This document shows, piece by piece, positions 13,775 to 36,010 of a stretch of DNA of 36,010 bases. The stretch comes from a virus. The translations under genes and the position numbers were made by a program. Position 1 is the stretch's first letter. Each line of letters begins with the position of its first letter. The DNA lies in the IMG/VR virus record IMGVR_UViG_3300025408_000007; one strand, written 5' to 3'. A model generated the notes under the pieces. That model did no database searches. It worked only from the letters and a program-made list of their open reading frames with translations, and had not been told where the DNA came from.

Positions 13775-15007
13775 ATGCACGAGCGCCAGCAGACCTTCCA
13801 GGACCTCGCGGCGCTCCACTACGTCCAGCGTCTGAACCCCGTGCAGGTGCGGATCCTCAAACTCCTCGCCCTCGGCGACTACACCCAGGCCGAGATCGGG
13901 CGGCGGCTCAACGTCAGCAGGCAGTACGTCAACCAGATTGTCAGCAAATTCCAGAAATACAACCTCGTCAAGAAGAACGGCCGCGCCTGGACCGTCAAGT
14001 ACCGCACCGACGACCGGCCCCACCGGGAAGACTACCTCACCCGGGAGAAGGCCGAAGCCGCCGCCGAGCAGGCCCGGAAGAACGGCATCTCCCCCACCAT
14101 CGAGCCCACCGCCGGCAGCCCCTACAACGCCACCTACGCCGTCAACCCGGCCCTCAGAAAACAGATCGACCGCGAAACCGACTACATCCAGTACACCAAC
14201 TGCCGCGTCCACAACATCCGCCGGTCCTACACCATCCTCAGACAATCCGGCCCCGTCGCCACCGACCCCCGCACCGGCTACGAAAAGAGCTGGAACATGC
14301 GGGGCGGCGCCCGCCACAAATTCTTCTACCCCGGCAAAGGCACCGCCCCGAACGTCACGATCGACGTCCACCCCGGCACCCTCACGGCCTACCCCGACCG
14401 GGGGCAGACCGTCACCGCCGAGAGCATCCAGGACGCCGAAGAACTCACCCGGAAAGCCATCGCGGATGCCATCGCCCTCTTCGTCGAAGGGCAGCGGCGC
14501 TTCGGCGTATACCTCGAAGTCACGCACGGCCGCCAGCCAACAAAAACCCACTACGGCTTCGCCTTCAGCACCGACGCCCCGCACGCTGCCGAACAAACCG
14601 CCCTCCCCGGCTTCTGGATCGACCACAGCCCCGAGAGCAACGGCGACCCCTACCACGCCGAGATCGAGACCCTCGACCCCGCCCGGGCGACCGGCCTCGA
14701 CCGGGCCATCATGCAGATGCACCGGCTTGACAGCACCATCGCCGACCACATCACCGCCGCGATCCCCCAGGCCATCCAGCCGCTCACCGCCCAGCTCAAC
14801 AGCATCGAGGCGGCCGTCTGCGGCGGCATCACCATGCAGCAGAAGCTCGACAACGTGACCCAGATTCTCGCCGCCGTCATGAAGCGGAACGAACAACTCT
14901 GGGACCTCGTTCTGACCAACCTTGTCCCCGGTCAAACCGGGCACGAAAACCACCCCTGCCAACCCCCCACAACGGGCGGCAACGGAGGAAGACATGCAAA
15001 GACATGA
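13775..15007 (+). CDS. Winged-HTH protein with large central domain and coiled-coil C-terminus; candidate replication initiator or regulator
   Basis: ILKLLALGDYTQAEIGRRLNVSRQYVNQIVSKF is a wHTH; strong codon bias. The replication role is inference only. Confidence 0.7.
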   Translation: MHERQQTFQDLAALHYVQRLNPVQVRILKLLALGDYTQAEIGRRLNVSRQYVNQIVSKFQKYNLVKKNGRAWTVKYRTDDRPHREDYLTREKAEAAAEQARKNGISPTIEPTAGSPYNATYAVNPALRKQIDRETDYIQYTNCRVHNIRRSYTILRQSGPVATDPRTGYEKSWNMRGGARHKFFYPGKGTAPNVTIDVHPGTLTAYPDRGQTVTAESIQDAEELTRKAIADAIALFVEGQRRFGVYLEVTHGRQPTKTHYGFAFSTDAPHAAEQTALPGFWIDHSPESNGDPYHAEIETLDPARATGLDRAIMQMHRLDSTIADHITAAIPQAIQPLTAQLNSIEAAVCGGITMQQKLDNVTQILAAVMKRNEQLWDLVLTNLVPGQTGHENHPCQPPTTGGNGGRHAKT

Positions 15008-15885: not shown

Positions 15886-16113
15886 ATGAGACCAAAAGAC
15901 GAGTTGTATCTCAAGGCGGTCGCCCGCCTGAAGCGGAGCAATGACGACCTAGAGCAGATCGTGAGGGCCATCCTCCTCAATCCCACGCTCCGGCAGGCAG
16001 CCACGGAAGAGTATTGCGACCTGCAGATGTGGGAGGAGGACATGGTTGCATCGGCAGCGTGCCGTAGGGCTGTGACTGACATCGAGGCCATCCTCGACTG
16101 GCCCGAGGAGTGA
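15886..16113 (+). CDS. Hypothetical protein
   Basis: GAGGTGA RBS; ends GAGGAGTGA. Confidence 0.65.
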   Translation: MRPKDELYLKAVARLKRSNDDLEQIVRAILLNPTLRQAATEEYCDLQMWEEDMVASAACRRAVTDIEAILDWPEE

Positions 16114-16116
16114 AGT

Positions 16117-16296
16117 ATGGACGATATTTCCATCATCATCACAGATCAGCCCTTGGGAGCGACAGGTTACGGGACCGTCGCCGTCTCCCCAGAGACGGCC
16201 TTCATCGCCATCCTGTTTCTAACTGTCATCTGTGGTTATGTCGGATACAAAGCGCTGATCTGGATTCTGGAAGCGATGCTGCTTCCTTACAGGTAA
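16117..16296 (+). CDS. Small membrane protein (59 aa, not in ORF track)
   Basis: MDDISIIITDQ...; one long TM segment. Confidence 0.55.
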   Translation: MDDISIIITDQPLGATGYGTVAVSPETAFIAILFLTVICGYVGYKALIWILEAMLLPYR

Positions 16297-16305
16297 GGAA
16301 TAGAG

Positions 16306-16485
16306 ATGAAACTGCTTAGGTTCGTCCTTCATAAAGTCTGGGGGAGCGACGTGGCACAAGATCTCGCCCATCTGGTCCTGCTGCCGGTAGTGGTTGTGGG
16401 CTTCGTCATAATCTGGTTTCGAGACAGGTGCAAGTCTCTAATCAGGGAGTATCGAGAGTTCAACCCGGAAATGGTAGAGGAGTGA
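16306..16485 (+). CDS. Small membrane protein (59 aa, not in ORF track)
   Basis: MKLLRFVLHK...EMVEE; ends in the junction motif. Confidence 0.55.
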   Translation: MKLLRFVLHKVWGSDVAQDLAHLVLLPVVVVGFVIIWFRDRCKSLIREYREFNPEMVEE

Positions 16486-16490
16486 CGACA

Positions 16491-16832
16491 ATGGAAAAAT
16501 CCGAACTTTACAACGAGGCGTGGCGGCTGTGGGGTGGGGATATGCAACTGGATATCCTCATCGAAGAGATGGCGGAGCTGACGCAGGCCATCATCAAGAC
16601 CCGGCGGCACAACGTGACCTGGAGTCACGCAGTTTTCGAGGAAATAGCAGATGTGCTCATCTGCCTGGAGCAGGTGGAAACCCGACTGAAAGCGCTGCCG
16701 ACTAGCTTTGACTGGGAGACCAACTCGCCCCGGGGATATCTCTGGGACATCGTGGAAGAGCTGAAGGCAGGCAAACTCGCCCGCCTCGAAGAGCGGCTCG
16801 CGGCTGCGAAGGCAGAGATGGTAGAGGAGTGA
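16491..16832 (+). CDS. MazG-like nucleotide pyrophosphohydrolase
   Basis: QLDILIEEMAELTQAI...EEIADVLI all-alpha NTP-PPase motif. Confidence 0.8.
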   Translation: MEKSELYNEAWRLWGGDMQLDILIEEMAELTQAIIKTRRHNVTWSHAVFEEIADVLICLEQVETRLKALPTSFDWETNSPRGYLWDIVEELKAGKLARLEERLAAAKAEMVEE

Positions 16833-16833
16833 T

Positions 16834-17643
16834 ATGACAACCTCTAGCACACCCCTCACTCACCTCTCGCTCTACTCAGGTATTGGGGGTATTGACCTCG
16901 CTGCGGAGTGGGCAGGGTTCAAGACCATCGGACAGGTTGAGAAGGACGCCTTTGCAAACAAGATACTAGCAAAGCATTGGCCGGGTGTGCCCCGATGGAA
17001 GGATATCAAGGATGTTGAAGTAGATGATGTCATTGGAAAAACTGGAATCAGATCACCGACCCTCATCTCTGGTGGCTTTCCGTGCCAGCCGTTCAGCAGC
17101 GTCGGACTCAAACGAGGCAAAGATGACCCTCGTTACCTCTGGCCGGAAATGCTTAGAATCGTGCGGGAGTACCGGCCGTCTTGGGTTGTTGGAGAAAATG
17201 TTGCTGGACTCAAAGGACTGGCACTCGACCAAATCTGCTCTGACTTGGAGGATATCGGTTACGCCTACCGGGCGTTCAGTATTCCAGCTGGAGCCGTTGG
17301 AGCCGACCAACTCCGGAGAAGAATTTTTGTGGTTGCCAACGATGTTGGCCTGCGATCTAGAGAAGCCGCTCCGCAGAAGGTGTCCGTCAGAGCGCAGCAA
17401 ATCTCACGGGACAATGTTCGTTGCAGCAATGGGGGAACTGCTGTTGCCAAGCACCGAATCGTTCCGCTCTCAATGTGGACGGGAGTACCTAAACCCACAG
17501 TTAATAGAAATGGTGATGGGGTTCCCTACAGGGTGGACAGATGCGTTGCACTCGGAAACGCAGTTGTCCCTCAGCAAATATATCCAATCCTGAAAGGGAT
17601 TGCGGAGATCGAACAGATGGTAGAGAACAGAAGGGAGGACTGA
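16834..17643 (+). CDS. C5-cytosine DNA methyltransferase (compact, virus type)
   Basis: Motifs I (LYSGIGG), IV (GGFPCQPFS), VI (ENV), VIII (Q-x-RRRIF) and X (LGNAVVPQ). Confidence 0.95.
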   Translation: MTTSSTPLTHLSLYSGIGGIDLAAEWAGFKTIGQVEKDAFANKILAKHWPGVPRWKDIKDVEVDDVIGKTGIRSPTLISGGFPCQPFSSVGLKRGKDDPRYLWPEMLRIVREYRPSWVVGENVAGLKGLALDQICSDLEDIGYAYRAFSIPAGAVGADQLRRRIFVVANDVGLRSREAAPQKVSVRAQQISRDNVRCSNGGTAVAKHRIVPLSMWTGVPKPTVNRNGDGVPYRVDRCVALGNAVVPQQIYPILKGIAEIEQMVENRRED

Positions 17644-17646
17644 AAA

Positions 17647-17808
17647 ATGGTTTACGAATTTGACGATGGAGAACTAATATCAGACCACTCTAAGTGGGTT
17701 AAAGTCTGCGACACCTGCGGAGAAGTGATTGTGTACGAAGCTGCCGACGAAGACGAGTTGTTATCGGGGCAGTACAAATGCCCGAGCTGCAAAACGACTC
17801 TCCGGTAG
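17647..17808 (+). CDS. Small Zn-ribbon protein (53 aa, not in ORF track)
   Basis: CDTC and CPSC pairs. Confidence 0.65.
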   Translation: MVYEFDDGELISDHSKWVKVCDTCGEVIVYEAADEDELLSGQYKCPSCKTTLR

Positions 17809-17817
17809 AGGAGTAAT

Positions 17818-18012
17818 ATGCACATTTATCAGAACGATGAAGGTGTCTTCTGCATGGCAACCGAAGTGAGATTATTACTCACCAAAGAGGCTTTAGCAGG
17901 AATTGAAGCACGGGCAAAAGACGGTGATGACCTCGCCAAGATGATCCTCGGCGGTATCGTGAAAGAAGAACAGGAACCGTATGATCCCGATGAGGATGAA
18001 GAGGATTGGTAG
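17818..18012 (+). CDS. Small acidic protein
   Basis: Bounded by junction motifs. Confidence 0.6.
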   Translation: MHIYQNDEGVFCMATEVRLLLTKEALAGIEARAKDGDDLAKMILGGIVKEEQEPYDPDEDEEDW

Positions 18013-18030
18013 AAAAGGAGAAGACAAATC

Positions 18031-18444
18031 ATGGACGATGAAACGTTTGAGATCATCAAGGCGGGCGCGGCTGACGCCCCACCGGAGCAGGCTCTATACC
18101 GCATCCAGCACACATACTCGGATGGCTCCGGGTCCCGGCTCAACGTAGATTGGGATGGGTTGCTCCGGCTGCATGAGGCGATCCATGACAGGATCGCTTT
18201 AGAGGGGCGAGTCTGTGAAACCTGTGGCACAAAGGGTTGCCACCGTCCGGCTACCTGGGAAATCGAGTGCCGAGGGGCTGGGGTTGCCAGCTGCCTGATC
18301 TACTCATGTGACGATCACTGCCCGGACCCGGCGATCCTATCGCCGCAGGACGAGATGCACAGGCTGGTAGAAAACCGCAACATAGAGCCGGAAAATGAGT
18401 TATCGAACCAAGTTCGTCAAAGTAAAGGAGATGAAAGAAAATGA
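18031..18444 (+). CDS. Apparent fusion protein with a Cys/His domain paralogous to 19381-19548
   Basis: C..C.T.GC...ATWEIE...CDDHCPDPAILSPQDE; internal junction motif at 18365. Confidence 0.65.
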   Translation: MDDETFEIIKAGAADAPPEQALYRIQHTYSDGSGSRLNVDWDGLLRLHEAIHDRIALEGRVCETCGTKGCHRPATWEIECRGAGVASCLIYSCDDHCPDPAILSPQDEMHRLVENRNIEPENELSNQVRQSKGDERK

Positions 18445-18800
18445 CATTACTCGAAGGATCTGACTGTCCAAAATGTATCTTCCACAAACACCCCAAGATA
18501 GGAGAATGCCCTATCTATGTGGCTGCCAACTACAACGAAGTTTGCCTCAGAATTGTTTGCTGTGACAATTTCAGACAGTTTACGCAGAGCCACGTTATCT
18601 TCACGCTCCGGGATCTTGAGATGGCGGAGCGCCACACTCGGGGCATTATCGGACACGAAGATATCGTTGACCGCCTCCAGTGGCTGCGTGAGAAACCCTT
18701 GTATGACCAGACCGTTACCCGCGAGGAATTGAGCGACACCGAGCGAGACCTCCTCGAAGACTACTGCCGGATAAAAGGAGAACTCATCCTTGATTCCTAA
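18441..18800 (+). CDS. Cys-rich hypothetical protein
   Basis: CPKC...CP...C...CCDNF; ATGA overlap. Confidence 0.6.
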   Translation: MTLLEGSDCPKCIFHKHPKIGECPIYVAANYNEVCLRIVCCDNFRQFTQSHVIFTLRDLEMAERHTRGIIGHEDIVDRLQWLREKPLYDQTVTREELSDTERDLLEDYCRIKGELILDS

Positions 18801-18826
18801 GTGGTAGAAAACAGGAAGGTGGACTG

Positions 18827-19006
18827 ATGGAAGATGCCAAAGAACTACTGGAAAAGATCGACCGTGCATTGATGCACGCTCAGGATCTCCTTGCAGACTC
18901 GCTCGACCACCACGGTGAGCGCGATCATGCCAAGATCCAAGAGGACATACTTGCGGCAATCTGTGCCCATGCGGCCCTCGAAACAAGGCTGGTAGAGGAG
19001 AGATAG
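18827..19006 (+). CDS. Small helical protein (59 aa, not in ORF track)
   Basis: MEDAKELLEK...LVEER. Confidence 0.6.
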   Translation: MEDAKELLEKIDRALMHAQDLLADSLDHHGERDHAKIQEDILAAICAHAALETRLVEER

Positions 19007-19008
19007 AG

Positions 19009-19146
19009 ATGGCGAGGTGCAAATATCAGAGCACAGATGGCAAAAAATGCTTCCGCCCCGGAGCGTCATTGAGGGTCTGTTGGCCCTACAACGAGCCCCC
19101 GATACGGCGTGAGCAGTGTAAACACTTCGTGGTAGAGGAGCGATAG
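19009..19146 (+). CDS. Small Cys-rich protein (45 aa, not in ORF track)
   Basis: Four Cys; ends VVEER. Confidence 0.55.
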   Translation: MARCKYQSTDGKKCFRPGASLRVCWPYNEPPIRREQCKHFVVEER

Positions 19147-19147
19147 T

Positions 19148-19366
19148 ATGGAACATCTAAGTCTCGGAAGACCTATCGAGGCGAGCCTCGGTCCTCGGTA
19201 TCGATGCCCGGTGTGCGGCCTTGACCTCTGGACTATCCTGGCCCCCTGGACCGGGTGGCAGGAGTGGTACAGGACCGAAGACGGGCGACGGCACTATAAA
19301 CACTCCTGCAACATCATGCGGGATGCCCACATCGCGTTTCGTCGGATGTTCGGGCAGGACTGGTAG
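19148..19366 (+). CDS. Small Zn-finger-like protein
   Basis: CPVC...HSC. Confidence 0.6.
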   Translation: MEHLSLGRPIEASLGPRYRCPVCGLDLWTILAPWTGWQEWYRTEDGRRHYKHSCNIMRDAHIAFRRMFGQDW

Positions 19367-19380
19367 AGGAGTGAAACACG

Positions 19381-19548
19381 ATGCCAAAATGCACAACGAG
19401 AGGATGCCGCCAGCTGGCGACCTGGGAAATCGAGATCCGCCGGGCCGGAGCGAAGTACGAGACATACTACGCCTGCGACGAGCATTGCCCGGATCCGGCG
19501 ATCCTATCGCCGCAGGACGAGATCCGCAGGCTGGTAGAGGGGCAATAG
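19381..19548 (+). CDS. Small Cys/His protein (55 aa, not in ORF track)
   Basis: MPKCTTRGCRQLATWEIE...CDEHCPDPAILSPQDE. Confidence 0.65.
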   Translation: MPKCTTRGCRQLATWEIEIRRAGAKYETYYACDEHCPDPAILSPQDEIRRLVEGQ

Positions 19549-19731
19549 ATGATCCATAAATGCGTGCTGTGTGGGAAGGAGGGCGAGTCCGAAGAAGAGC
19601 CTGTGGTGGGTTGGCAATATGTCGAGTGTGCCGATGGGGATATCTACCCCTATTGCCCCGATCACTCCGAGGGCGATATCCGCGCCGACCTGCTGGCAAG
19701 AGGTTACTCGGAAGGGCTGGTAGAGGAGTGA
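19549..19731 (+). CDS. Small Zn-binding protein
   Basis: CVLC...YCPDH. Confidence 0.6.
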   Translation: MIHKCVLCGKEGESEEEPVVGWQYVECADGDIYPYCPDHSEGDIRADLLARGYSEGLVEE

Positions 19732-19734
19732 AAG

Positions 19735-19923
19735 ATGATATTCACCGACGAGGAAGTTGAAAATATCAACAGGTATCAGCAATCCGGCAAATTCCACCCG
19801 CTAACCTGCGGGAACGGTCACGGAGACCTCATAGCAACAAATGATGGATTGATCTGCCCTGAGTGCGATTACCGGCAGACCTGGGTACATGGCTGGATTA
19901 AAAGCGGGGAATGGCCCTGGTAG
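19735..19923 (+). CDS. Small Zn-binding protein
   Basis: HPLTC...LICPECDY. Confidence 0.65.
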   Translation: MIFTDEEVENINRYQQSGKFHPLTCGNGHGDLIATNDGLICPECDYRQTWVHGWIKSGEWPW

Positions 19924-19934
19924 AGGAGTGAAGG

Positions 19935-20096
19935 ATGAAGGCAAAACTTAAGATCGAAGAGACCCGGGCCGGGTTCCGGTGCCGGGTCTGTGGCCGCCGG
20001 TTTAGGACCGAAGAGGCCGCGTTCGTCCACCAGTCATATGACTGCTCGCCGGATCTGCGACCGCTAGCTATCCGGTCTCATGTGGTAGAGGAGTGA
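19935..20096 (+). CDS. C2HC/C2H2-like Zn finger (53 aa, not in ORF track)
   Basis: CRVCGRRF...HQSYDC; ends VVEE. Confidence 0.65.
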   Translation: MKAKLKIEETRAGFRCRVCGRRFRTEEAAFVHQSYDCSPDLRPLAIRSHVVEE

Positions 20097-20365
20097 TGGC
20101 TAACCCTAACTCCCCTCTCTACCAGGTGGCGTTTGCGGCTCATCGGTGCGTCCGCTGCCGGACCCACTACGTCACGATCCCCGGCTCGATGTGCGGAGCG
20201 TGCGAGGACCACCTCATGAATCAGGCCCGGAAGGATGCAGTCGATTACTACATGCGGGCCGCCGGCCGGCGTCCGGGTGCTGCAATCACCGTGGGGGTGT
20301 GCCGACACGTGCAGGCCAAGCAAGCGCAGCCGGCGAACGCGACACTTGATCTATTTGGGTGTTAG
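20096..20365 (+). CDS. Zn-binding protein
   Basis: CVRC and CGAC pairs. Confidence 0.6.
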   Translation: MANPNSPLYQVAFAAHRCVRCRTHYVTIPGSMCGACEDHLMNQARKDAVDYYMRAAGRRPGAAITVGVCRHVQAKQAQPANATLDLFGC

Positions 20366-20428
20366 TCTATCGATACGGTAGAGTAATTCCCGGACCTATC
20401 ACTCCTCCCCCGAAGAATGATAGGCCAG

Positions 20429-20457
20429 CCCCCTTTTCTTTAAATCCTCTTTATTAC
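20429..20457 (+). terminator. Pyrimidine/oligo-T tract after the gene array
   Basis: CCCCTTTTCTTTAAATCCTCTTTATT-like tract, the usual form of archaeal intrinsic terminators. Confidence 0.45.
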
Positions 20458-24757: not shown

Positions 24758-24875
24758 ATGCCAACAAAATCAGAAGAGTATCTTGCGGTGCATAAATCCT
24801 CCCCGAAAAGGATGAGGCCGCCTTGAGTGCGGGTGGGACGAAGTAGGGGAGGGAGTGCCGGCAATTTTACTACCC

Positions 24876-34526: not shown

Positions 34527-35243
34527 ATGTCAACCATAACCGTTACTCCAACCGGCGCCGAGGTCGGCGGAATGATCCTCGGCCTCCCCTGGTTCATCTG
34601 GGGCTTCGTAGTGCTCGGCCTCGTCATCCTCTTCAGCAACGCCTTATGGGTCTGGTACTGGTGGACCATGGGTCCCGTCTCCGGCTACTTCCGAGCCTCC
34701 CGCACCAACACCGACCTCGGCATTGTCTGCCTCAAGAGCGGCCGGATGCGCTTCTACGCCATGGACTACATCGCCGGCATCTTCAACGCCGTAGGGCTCC
34801 CGCTCTCGTGGATCCAGCGGTCCCCCGACTCGCACCGCTTCGGCGCCGTCAACGCCAAGATCTTCCTCGACACCTGGGGTATCGCCACCGACCCGAAGCT
34901 TCAGGCCGCGGTCAAAGCCGCCATCATCGACTGGAACGAGACCCACACCGAGAGCGATCAGATCGCCGACTACGAAGACCTCTACAACCTCGTCAAGGCC
35001 GGAAAGATTGACGATCCGATCTTGATGCCGGCAGTCTGCGAAGTCCCCCTCTACGAAATCGAACGCTACCTCCCGCACATCGGTGCCGGCGACCTCGAAG
35101 GCCACATCGCCGAGCGCGTCGCCGAAGAGACCGACGACCTCAAAACCTCCTCTTGGCCCGGCTGGATGAAGGCCCTCATCGCCATCGAGGTCGTCATCGT
35201 GATCATCGTCTGCACCGTCTACCTGCTCGGGGGAAGTGGGTGA
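34527..35243 (+). CDS. Membrane protein with N- and C-terminal TM helices
   Basis: Codon bias; hydrophobic ends. Confidence 0.8.
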   Translation: MSTITVTPTGAEVGGMILGLPWFIWGFVVLGLVILFSNALWVWYWWTMGPVSGYFRASRTNTDLGIVCLKSGRMRFYAMDYIAGIFNAVGLPLSWIQRSPDSHRFGAVNAKIFLDTWGIATDPKLQAAVKAAIIDWNETHTESDQIADYEDLYNLVKAGKIDDPILMPAVCEVPLYEIERYLPHIGAGDLEGHIAERVAEETDDLKTSSWPGWMKALIAIEVVIVIIVCTVYLLGGSG

Positions 35244-36010
35244 GCGACAATGTTACCGCTCCTCATCCCCCTGGCCCCTCACCTCGTGCGGGCGGCAACC
35301 TCCACCCGCCCACAGCCACAGGCACAGCTCCGCCCCTCCCCCTCTCCTCAGACCTCGCCGACCCCGGCCCCCACGCTCTCCACTCCGTTTGACATCGCCC
35401 TCCGGGCCGGCCCCGCCTTCGCCGGCCACCTCATCGGCTCCAGGGTGGACCTGCTCACCGCACCCGCCCGGACCGTCAACCCATCTATCCCCCGGGCCCG
35501 GGAAGAGTTCGCCGCCCGCCCCGTCGAGATGGTCCGGGGCGGCCTCATCGGCGCCAGCCTGATCACCGGCGTCGCGGGAGGTGCCGCCCTCCTCGGTGGC
35601 GGCGGGGCCGTCGCCGCAGCAGGTCCGGCCGCGTCCGGCATCATCCGCACCGGCGGCGGAGCCGCTCTCGGCCTCGCCACCCGCACCGCCCCCGCGATCG
35701 TCCAGCAGGGCGCCACAGTGGCCGCAACCGCCGCCGGCGCCATGCTCCCCCTCGCCCTCGCCAACGAGATCGGCCCCGCCTTCCCCGACCCCGGCCCGCA
35801 GTTCCCCACCGGCCGCCCCGGCCCGGAGATCAGCCCCGGCCGCAACCCCTACGTCCTCGGCCCCGGCCCCATCCCGCATTCCACCTGGGACCCCGGGCAG
35901 GCTGAGTTAGGCCCCGGGGACCGGATATCTCGGCTCGAACGCATCTCTCCCCCGTCCCCGGTCGGCACCCACGAGGTCGGCCTCCACCGCGACCTCACCG
36001 AGATCCGGCC
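35161..36010 (+). repeat. Direct repeat, copy 2
   Basis: Colinear with 1-850, ~94% identical. Confidence 0.97.
35250..36010 (+). CDS. Second, divergent allele of the 90-1577 gene (partial, runs off the window)
   Basis: Same frame kept open; many substitutions are synonymous. Confidence 0.8.
   Translation, partial: MLPLLIPLAPHLVRAATSTRPQPQAQLRPSPSPQTSPTPAPTLSTPFDIALRAGPAFAGHLIGSRVDLLTAPARTVNPSIPRAREEFAARPVEMVRGGLIGASLITGVAGGAALLGGGGAVAAAGPAASGIIRTGGGAALGLATRTAPAIVQQGATVAATAAGAMLPLALANEIGPAFPDPGPQFPTGRPGPEISPGRNPYVLGPGPIPHSTWDPGQAELGPGDRISRLERISPPSPVGTHEVGLHRDLTEIR

Follow-up and report, generated by a model that had tools for sequence, protein, structure and literature searches.

The virus genome analysed here, IMG/VR record IMGVR_UViG_3300025408_000007 (36,010 nucleotides (nt) in total, referred to below as the window), carries a hypervariable array of small co-oriented accessory genes, nearly every junction of which holds a copy of one short motif, TGGTAGA followed by a Shine–Dalgarno (SD) sequence. 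Comparison of related arrays shows that their unit of exchange runs from motif to motif, that the exchange point lies in the motif core and that exchange has been both recent and horizontal. We propose, with a rough probability of 0.55, that the motif is an adaptor combining stop codons in two reading frames with an SD sequence, and that its core of 7–11 nt is the crossover point at which the genes of the array are shuffled. The original prediction, made from the letters of the window, had described a cassette-shuffling array in which ~14 nt carry stop, ribosome-binding site (RBS) and crossover, and this central idea held when relatives were compared.

Within the window, YGGTAGA occurs at 20 sites on the two strands together, whereas shuffled sequences contain 6.6 ± 2.6 and none of 100 shuffles reaches 20. 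Fifteen of these sites lie on the + strand at 16472–20382, within the 4.3 kb array, where 0.67 would be expected from array base composition, and just three further + strand sites fall in the remaining 31 kb. The longer form TGGTAGAGGAG is present ten times at ≤1 mismatch (0.68 expected), with exact copies at 16472, 16819, 18990, 19130, 19361, 19718, 19918 and 20083, and six of these eight (16472, 16819, 19361, 19718, 19918 and 20083) continue with TGA to give TGGTAGAGGAGTGA. The copies occupy nearly every gene junction of the array, so that the 15 motifs, eight exact and six in the longer exact form, previously reported at nearly all boundaries were recovered on recounting, together with their enrichment over the rest of the genome. 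The motif supplies the stop codon of the upstream open reading frame (ORF), read as TGG-TAG or GTA-GAG-GAG-TGA, unless the frame runs on for a few more codons. Four copies are read as V-E-E-stop and four as W-stop or R-stop, longer tails are found elsewhere and the copy at 18802 is intergenic, in agreement with the claim that the motif is read in several frames. One copy, at 18365, is a stop-less variant lying in the reading frame, and the ORF extends through it for 25 codons as a fused junction. The longer sub-type described at 17618 and 18802 is also real. All array starts can be read as ATG, including that of the last gene, for which the ORF list gives a GTG at 20093 that is in frame with ATG 20096.

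The array also stands apart from its genome, as had been noted, in its lower G+C content (0.545 vs 0.613 for the rest), and inspection of the other genes agrees that they use plain GGAGG or GAGGTGA sites without TGGTA. These observations bear on the simplest alternative, namely that the motif is just a common strong RBS or coupling signal of the host. It does contain GGAG and GTGA and in this resembles GGAGGTGA, but the core genes of the virus and its relatives do without it, and a search for motif pairs 155–185 nt apart in one genome per prokaryote species, a stringent scan that single uses of the motif would escape, returned 31 unrelated hits and no methanogen or other plausible host. We therefore regard this alternative as highly improbable.

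Relatives were collected in two ways. A metagenome scan for two motif copies 160–190 nt apart gave 101 loci, of which ~21 share sequence with the window, and in every one of these ~21 hardly a junction lacks the motif. Two conserved proteins led to further contigs, either near-identical to the window (L007–L012) or more distant (L148, L149, L153, L155 and L156); they too have arrays, with 22 motif copies in 6.2 kb in L149 and 15 copies in L156. In all, ~30 related metagenome contigs have the motif at their junctions, and no relatives were met with outside metagenomes of digesters, bioreactors, landfill and wastewater. The motif is array-specific: it is missing from genes outside the arrays of L149 and L156. 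The distant relatives L145 and L147 and the upstream small-gene blocks of L005 and L006 are without it as well.

Alignment of 140 unique copies from 24 loci gives the consensus T GGTAGA GGAGtGAAAGatg, or, with the start codon included, T-GGTAGA-GGAGTGAAAG-ATG. Position -1 is a T in 94% of copies, and farther upstream no position is conserved, so the motif has a sharp left edge. The distance from the G of the core to the ATG peaks at 16–19 nt, which places GGAG 5–8 nt before the start. Since the copies were ascertained on GGTAGA, conservation of the core relative to the SD sequence is biased in these alignments, and the unbiased check is the occurrence of the core near ORF starts: it lies ≤40 nt upstream of 115 of 155 array ORF starts, although starts were crudely called. 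The rare variants TGGCAGA and TGGTAGG are also seen among relatives.

Shuffling is seen in the gene neighbourhoods. The 139 genes preceded by the motif fall into 25 families and 46 singletons, and almost all families change their left and right neighbours between contigs. The family of gene 19381, for example, is followed by five different genes across contigs, and the families of genes 19148 and 19381 occur in reversed order in L071 and L074. In all-against-all BLASTN comparisons, 54% of high-scoring segment pairs (HSPs) start 1–10 nt 5′ of GGTAGA and 58% end 0–29 nt 3′ of it, against ~4–8% at random in both cases. The position of the exchange was mapped from junctions that share only one neighbour. 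In 45 pairs with downstream genes of one family and different upstream flanks, identity rises from 0.47 upstream to 0.84 in the right half of the motif and 0.87 in the gene; in 32 pairs with one upstream family and different downstream genes, it falls from 0.80 upstream to 0.50 in the right half. The between-family baseline is 0.52–0.53. The right half thus follows the downstream gene and the left flank follows the upstream gene, which puts the exchange point in the 7–11 nt core.

Single cassettes document how recent these events have been. Three cassettes of the window recur in L101/L149 at 98.6–99.4% nt identity, each in an HSP that runs from motif to motif (99.4% for 18990–19143 and 98.6% for 19530–19737), and there they stand in another order with unrelated genes around them, in genomes whose shared core gene is 83.5% and whose methylase cassette is 72.5% identical to that of the window. 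The cassette at 18802–19006 is found at 97–98.5% identity in four other arrays (L031, L072, L113 and L156). Conversely, L148 has a core that is 88–95% identical to that of the window and an array that is almost entirely different. The near-identical contig L007 matches the window at 99.994% over 15,960 nt, ending at 19734 with divergence setting in inside the motif copy at 19718, and similarity is regained, at only 79%, at 20393, the right boundary of the array. The gain, loss and reordering of genes, with breaks at the motif, that comparison of relatives was expected to reveal are therefore strongly supported. On the three points where the original prediction had laid itself open, gene order is not the same in relatives, breakpoints are not unrelated to the motif and the motif does not behave as the common RBS of a host.

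The same pattern is seen in contigs from four independent sequencing runs of four studies that were aligned to the array, runs with a small share of words being left out. These contigs, which as assemblies record alternative arrangements rather than excision events, begin and end at motif copies and include the motif-to-motif joints 17801->18989, 19540->19929, 16113->19918 and 20090->19361, while the joint 19935->18031 is present in all four runs. The outer joints 16113/16114 and 20392/20393 mark the start and end of the array and are seen in other metagenomes and in L007. In the RNA run X15, parts of the array are present as contigs, which says nothing of transcription or RNA ends.

An origin of the repeated junction by common descent, in which an ancestral small gene was duplicated in tandem together with its junction and the copies later diverged beyond recognition, would fit the paralogy of some cassettes, such as family F01 (to which genes 18031 and 19381 belong and which appears more than once within arrays). 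Yet genes as unlike as those for a C5 methylase, a PAPS-reductase-domain protein and a MazG-like protein, besides many unrelated orphans, all stand behind this junction, and cassettes that are 99% identical sit in differing neighbourhoods of diverged genomes. Neighbour shuffling, the mapping of the exchange point and the moved cassettes largely refute this explanation, which we hold to be very improbable.

Two relatives reveal a second kind of junction. In L148 and L156, some of the junctions read (T)GTGCGT followed by TAG, TGA or TAA and GGTGA.. in place of TGGTAGAGGAG, and this second type is read in at least two frames (...CA-stop and ...VRR-stop). The two types are built to one plan, in which a conserved core at the 5′ side is combined with stops in two frames and an SD sequence, and some gene families found behind the second type are those found behind TGGTAGA elsewhere, from which it follows that the junction modules are themselves interchangeable. 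The existence of two core types also means that no single pairing partner, such as rRNA, can explain the cores.

This second type weighs on a further alternative, in which the core is the binding site of a regulator, either a protein or RNA that binds DNA as at stoperators or a factor that binds mRNA as proposed for start-associated sequences (SAS), and serves to silence or time the accessory operon, with shuffling as a by-product of its conservation. The motif is asymmetric, has one orientation, overlaps stops at short intergenic sites and is limited to non-structural genes, all others lacking it, which is true of stoperators and SAS alike (PMC3203893); moreover the virus is temperate and encodes several helix-turn-helix (HTH), ribbon-helix-helix and Zn-ribbon proteins. 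No candidate binder was identified, however, and all sites lie in a single operon, not across the genome. The two cores in the single array of L156 would call for two factors, and the strict spacing to the ATG suits translation better than the blocking of transcription. On balance a regulator site seems quite unlikely to be the explanation.

The adaptor that we favour would have three roles. A module of the form T-GGTAGA-GGAG-TGA-(2–6 nt)-ATG before each small gene would end the incoming ORF when it arrives in either of two frames, one read as TGG-TAG and the other as GTA-GAG-GAG-TGA, with the third left open. Its SD sequence (GGAG/GAGG), 5–8 nt before the next ATG, could start the following gene, giving tightly coupled translation from one transcript. 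In addition, exchange between the DNA of co-replicating or related viruses would take place at the core because this is the only sequence that the unrelated genes have in common. Units consisting of core, SD and spacer, ORF and next core could in this way be deleted, inserted, swapped or reordered and still be expressible, and the core would be kept conserved by homogenisation through repeated exchange together with selection for expressibility. As to the reaction itself, we favour recombination by microhomology (annealing, end joining or template switching) over a dedicated recombinase. One motif-carrying lineage, L004, has a RecT-family annealing protein downstream of its array (1372–2052, - strand, PF03837, E 3e-33, ~2.5 kb away); this is a virus of a different type with two junction motifs.

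Several points weigh against the adaptor as crossover site. No annealing protein was found in the genome of the window, a RecT homologue being seen only in L004, and 7–11 nt is very short for exchange driven by homology. TGGTA has no identified translational role and would extend past the canonical 3′ end of 16S rRNA; the idea that TGGTA pairs with the anti-SD tail was rejected. TGGTA is also better conserved than the SD sequence, in copies that were ascertained on GGTAGA. Breakpoints at motifs are inseparable from breakpoints at gene boundaries, given that nearly all boundaries bear the motif, and the replaceable junction modules of L148 and L156 are unexplained by a simple model of crossover in the core.

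Some of these points would be accommodated by site-specific recombination of cassettes, in which an enzyme of the virus or host recognises TGGTAGA (elsewhere GTGCGT) and moves single-gene units as a hairpin-free analogue of the integron. The exchange point maps to a core of 7–11 nt with a sharp left edge, the SD sequence is no better conserved than this core, and the TGGTA half of the core lacks a translational explanation. The coexistence in relatives of a second core type with the same architecture is what alternative sites would produce, single cassettes move between genomes that are ~16% diverged, and the genome has genes for a tyrosine integrase and a serine resolvase. However, no inverted repeat, dyad symmetry or hairpin surrounds the core, as needed by known tyrosine and serine recombinases and by attC sites, and to its left the coding sequence varies freely. 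Nor do the arrays have a recombinase as constant neighbour. A serine resolvase lies beside those of the window, L038, L155 and L156 and is absent beside others (L074 and L020), the integrase of the window is 9 kb off, and the arrays of relatives are flanked by other genes with no integrase adjoining. The gene found most often beside arrays encodes p264, which has no family assignment, and its structural model was too poor to be informative (predicted local distance difference test score, pLDDT, 48.7) and held no pointer to a recombinase. The earlier suggestion that the integrase or the resolvase could drive the array is not supported, as nothing ties either to the motif and the resolvase is missing beside some arrays. 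We consider a site-specific enzyme rather unlikely. A narrower proposal, that archaeal-type viruses possess an enzyme cutting and joining at a 7-nt core (TGGTAGA, or GTGCGT in sisters) inside the dual-frame stop and SD adaptor, without need of hairpins and with single genes moved between viruses, and hence a minimal integron built on a translation signal, is unlikely.

The model of the 410-aa protein encoded upstream of the array, which has a predicted winged HTH, likewise gives no pointer to a recombinase; Foldseek matches to its central domain are weak and are all to TATA-binding proteins (E ~6e-3, probability ~0.9). Just upstream of the integrase gene, at 30787–30850, lies a long inverted repeat with 20-nt arms and the loop CGTAGAGTGATA on the integrase strand. 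A link between the integrase and the motif through this loop was rejected, the match being too weak and the resemblance loose.

Comparison with integrons gave a divided answer. As in integrons, unrelated genes without promoters of their own are lined up in one orientation, the set of cassettes and their succession vary from one close relative to the next, and cassette boundaries fall in a 7-nt core that can be compared with GTTRRRY. Each integron cassette ends at its 3′ side in attC, an imperfect inverted repeat of 57–141 bp that folds into a hairpin. Here no attC is present, no inverted repeat is tied to the motif and single-stranded DNA folds of 13 junctions have z scores of -1.6 to +1.8; the repeat doubles instead as stop and RBS. 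Neither IntI, attI nor Pc was found beside the array, the only full tyrosine integrase being 9 kb away, in a comparison that did not extend to the extra domain specific to IntI. The description of the array as integron-like is thus accurate for its architecture and fails for the attC-type hairpin and the adjoining integrase. A CRISPR-like array was rejected on the grounds that the spacing is 140–800 nt and coding, and a shufflon because the copies are direct rather than inverted repeats.

A closer parallel in behaviour is found in the promoter-early stem-loops (PeSLs), mobile regulatory cassettes of T4-type phages (Arbiol et al. 2010, PMC2839356; Comeau et al. 2014, PMC4122927), with PeSL-like motifs also described in the haloarchaeal virus HGTV-1 (PMC3950731). 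In both systems a conserved expression signal flanks small, mostly orphan genes of a hyperplastic region, indels and replacements between relatives map to that signal, and recombination between signals is proposed to leave the moved gene expressible. PeSLs, however, are ~100 bp long, consist of a promoter and a terminator hairpin and act in transcription, whereas the junctions here measure 14–20 nt, have no hairpin and no AT-rich promoter element and would act on translation inside one operon. Excised mini-circles with one motif and a gene are a feature of PeSLs, while the rearranged forms here are known from assembled contigs only.

In appearance the motif is nearer to the SAS of cluster K mycobacteriophages (Pope et al. 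2011, PMC3203893). These are likewise asymmetric repeats of ~13 nt in one orientation, placed a few nt (3–7) upstream of mostly ATG starts and built round an SD core; they combine AGGAG with conserved positions that are unable to pair with 16S rRNA, sometimes overlap the upstream stop and precede non-structural genes of different families. They differ in their consensus (GGGATAGGAGCCC, in Mycobacterium phages, against TGGTAGAGGAGTGA in an unrelated virus with archaeal-type genes), in having a bacterial host, in not being reported as crossover points for shuffling and in the upstream inverted-repeat extension (ESAS) that about half of them possess and that is absent here. The stoperators of cluster A mycobacteriophages (cited in PMC3203893) are also short, asymmetric sites in one orientation that overlap stops in short intergenic regions, but they occur genome-wide and are bound by the phage repressor, while the sites described here are confined to one accessory operon. 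As read here, the array works like PeSL shuffling and looks like SAS, and is a member of neither family; what distinguishes it is the proposed translational nature of the module and its very short exchange core.

The motif and the array appear to be otherwise undescribed, in that a full-text literature search for TGGTAGAGGAG yielded primers only and topical searches gave no description. A megablast of 12 kb against phage records found nothing related, scans seeded with the 410-aa protein gave no match in viral_contigs or genome_contigs, and the consensus 20-mer is absent from IMG/VR. The motif-pair scan of IMG/VR returned one true relative (L004) and look-alikes in tandem repeats and tRNA genes (L001–L003). 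In one of these, an unrelated AT-rich viral contig (L002:3458–3700), two tRNA-like genes contain the 11-mer TGGTAGAGGAG around the D-arm; the D-loop and stem of tRNAs commonly read (U)GGUAGAG, and the match was taken as coincidence.

If the adaptor works as proposed, these digester viruses, a poorly known group, renew their accessory genes (probably early or counter-defence genes) one by one, with evidence at the population level, and 14–20 nt suffice to secure both that the upstream ORF ends and that the incoming gene is translated. The idea of regulatory motifs as crossover points, known from the PeSLs of T4, would be extended from a transcription to a translation signal, and SAS-like start-associated repeats, the function of which is open in mycobacteriophages, would gain a concrete evolutionary role. 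With so short an exchange core, the mechanism can be approached by experiment, as a choice between microhomology and a new recombinase. The module may also serve as a natural design for promoterless, frame-tolerant stacking of genes, and the array as a ready list of candidate small anti-defence proteins.

Table 1. Junctions, cargo genes and other features of the window and, where stated, of its relatives.
Feature	Position	Strand	Sequence	Remarks
Hypervariable accessory-gene array, 15 small co-oriented genes	16114..20392	+		GC 0.545
First junction, right half without TGGTA core	16105..16116	+	GAGGAGTGA alone	Joint 16113->19918 in run X5
Motif 1	16472..16485	+	TGGTAGAGGAGTGA	Upstream ORF ends MVEE-stop; next ATG 16491
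Motif 2	16819..16832	+	TGGTAGAGGAGTGA	MVEE-stop; next ATG 16834; edge of contig pieces in runs X3, X9 and X15
Motif 3, long sub-type	17618..17646	+	TGGTAGAGAACAGAAGGGAGGACTGA	ATG 17647
Motif 4	17803..17817	+	CGGTAGAGGAGTAA	R-stop via TAG; ATG 17818; joint 17801->18989 in run X3
Motif 5	18007..18030	+	TGGTAGAAAAGGAGAAG...	W-stop; ATG 18031
Motif 6, core within gene 18031-18444	18365..18371	+		Contig pieces break there in runs X3, X5, X9 and X15
Motif 7, long sub-type	18802..18826	+		Wholly intergenic; ATG 18827
Motif 8	18990..19008	+	TGGTAGAGGAGAGATAGAG	LVEER-stop; ATG 19009
Motif 9	19130..19147	+	TGGTAGAGGAGCGATAGT	VVEER-stop; ATG 19148
Motif 10	19361..19380	+	TGGTAGAGGAGTGAAACACG	W-stop; ATG 19381
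Motif 11	19532..19548	+	TGGTAGAGGGGCAATAG	LVEGQ-stop; ATG 19549
Motif 12	19718..19734	+	TGGTAGAGGAGTGAAAG	LVEE-stop; ATG 19735; breakpoint of recent replacement in L007
Motif 13	19918..19934	+	TGGTAGAGGAGTGAAGG	W-stop; ATG 19935; joints 16113->19918, 19540->19929 and 19935->18031
Motif 14	20083..20096	+	TGGTAGAGGAGTGA	VVEE-stop; overlaps ATG 20096
Terminal degenerate copy after last gene, right array boundary	20376..20392	+	CGGTAGAGTAATTCCCG	Joints to 20392-20394; L007 similarity resumes at 20393
Hairpin followed by T-rich run	20395..20450	+	CCTATCACTCCTC/GAAGAATGATAGG	Probable operon terminator
Second junction type, 7 junctions	L148:16811-19203	-
Second junction type, 4 junctions	L156:6846-8869	-
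MazG-like protein, 113 aa	16491..16832	+		Weak match to PF03819, E 0.0086, under curated cut-off
C-5 cytosine DNA methyltransferase, 269 aa	16834..17643	+		PF00145, E 9e-36
Eleven small genes, 45-137 aa	17647..20365	+		Mostly Zn-ribbon-like or orphan
410-aa protein	13775-15007			Conserved in virus group, upstream of array; predicted N-terminal winged HTH and confidently modelled central alpha/beta domain
Rfam DUF3800-X RNA match	24786-24860	+		63.9 bits, gathering threshold 38.2
p264	25257-26051	-		C-terminal Zn ribbon; >160 homologues at 70-96% identity in digester metagenomes; often beside arrays
p264 paralogue (30% identity)	26139-26876	-		C-terminal Zn ribbon
Tyrosine integrase	29475-30758			9 kb from array

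The features of the window and its relatives are collected in Table 1. Motif 14 pairs with an inverted near-copy, CTCCCCTCTCTACCA, that lies 14 nt downstream (20110–20124), and the stretch 20083–20124 could form a hairpin of ~12 bp (-15.4 kcal/mol, z -1.6) that covers the start of the array's last gene at its initiation codon. Among the cargo, genes 18031 and 19381 share a C-terminal domain, 18235–18371 and 19402–19538 being 76% identical at the nt level, and a PAPS-reductase-domain protein is also among the genes preceded by the junction. Annotation suggests an anti-defence, counter-defence or early function for the cargo.

The genome encodes PKD/DUF2341/CarboxypepD-reg surface proteins, a protein with an archaeal-type pilin N-terminus, the tyrosine integrase, the serine resolvase and a ParB-DUF488 protein, and no head–tail genes were recognised. 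It belongs to a temperate virus of anaerobic digesters, landfill and wastewater, with archaeal-type features in its gene content, so that the host may be an archaeon. Some homologues of its proteins (P0012, P0085, P0134 and P0135) are labelled as belonging to bacterial metagenome-assembled genomes (Bacilli bacterium and Ca. Darwinibacter acetoxidans), which reflects either mis-binned contigs or a host that is not archaeal. The two ends of the window, 1–850 and 35161–36010, repeat each other without gaps (801 of 850 positions identical), which makes it probable that the window represents a complete genome of ~35.2 kb, either circular or terminally redundant.

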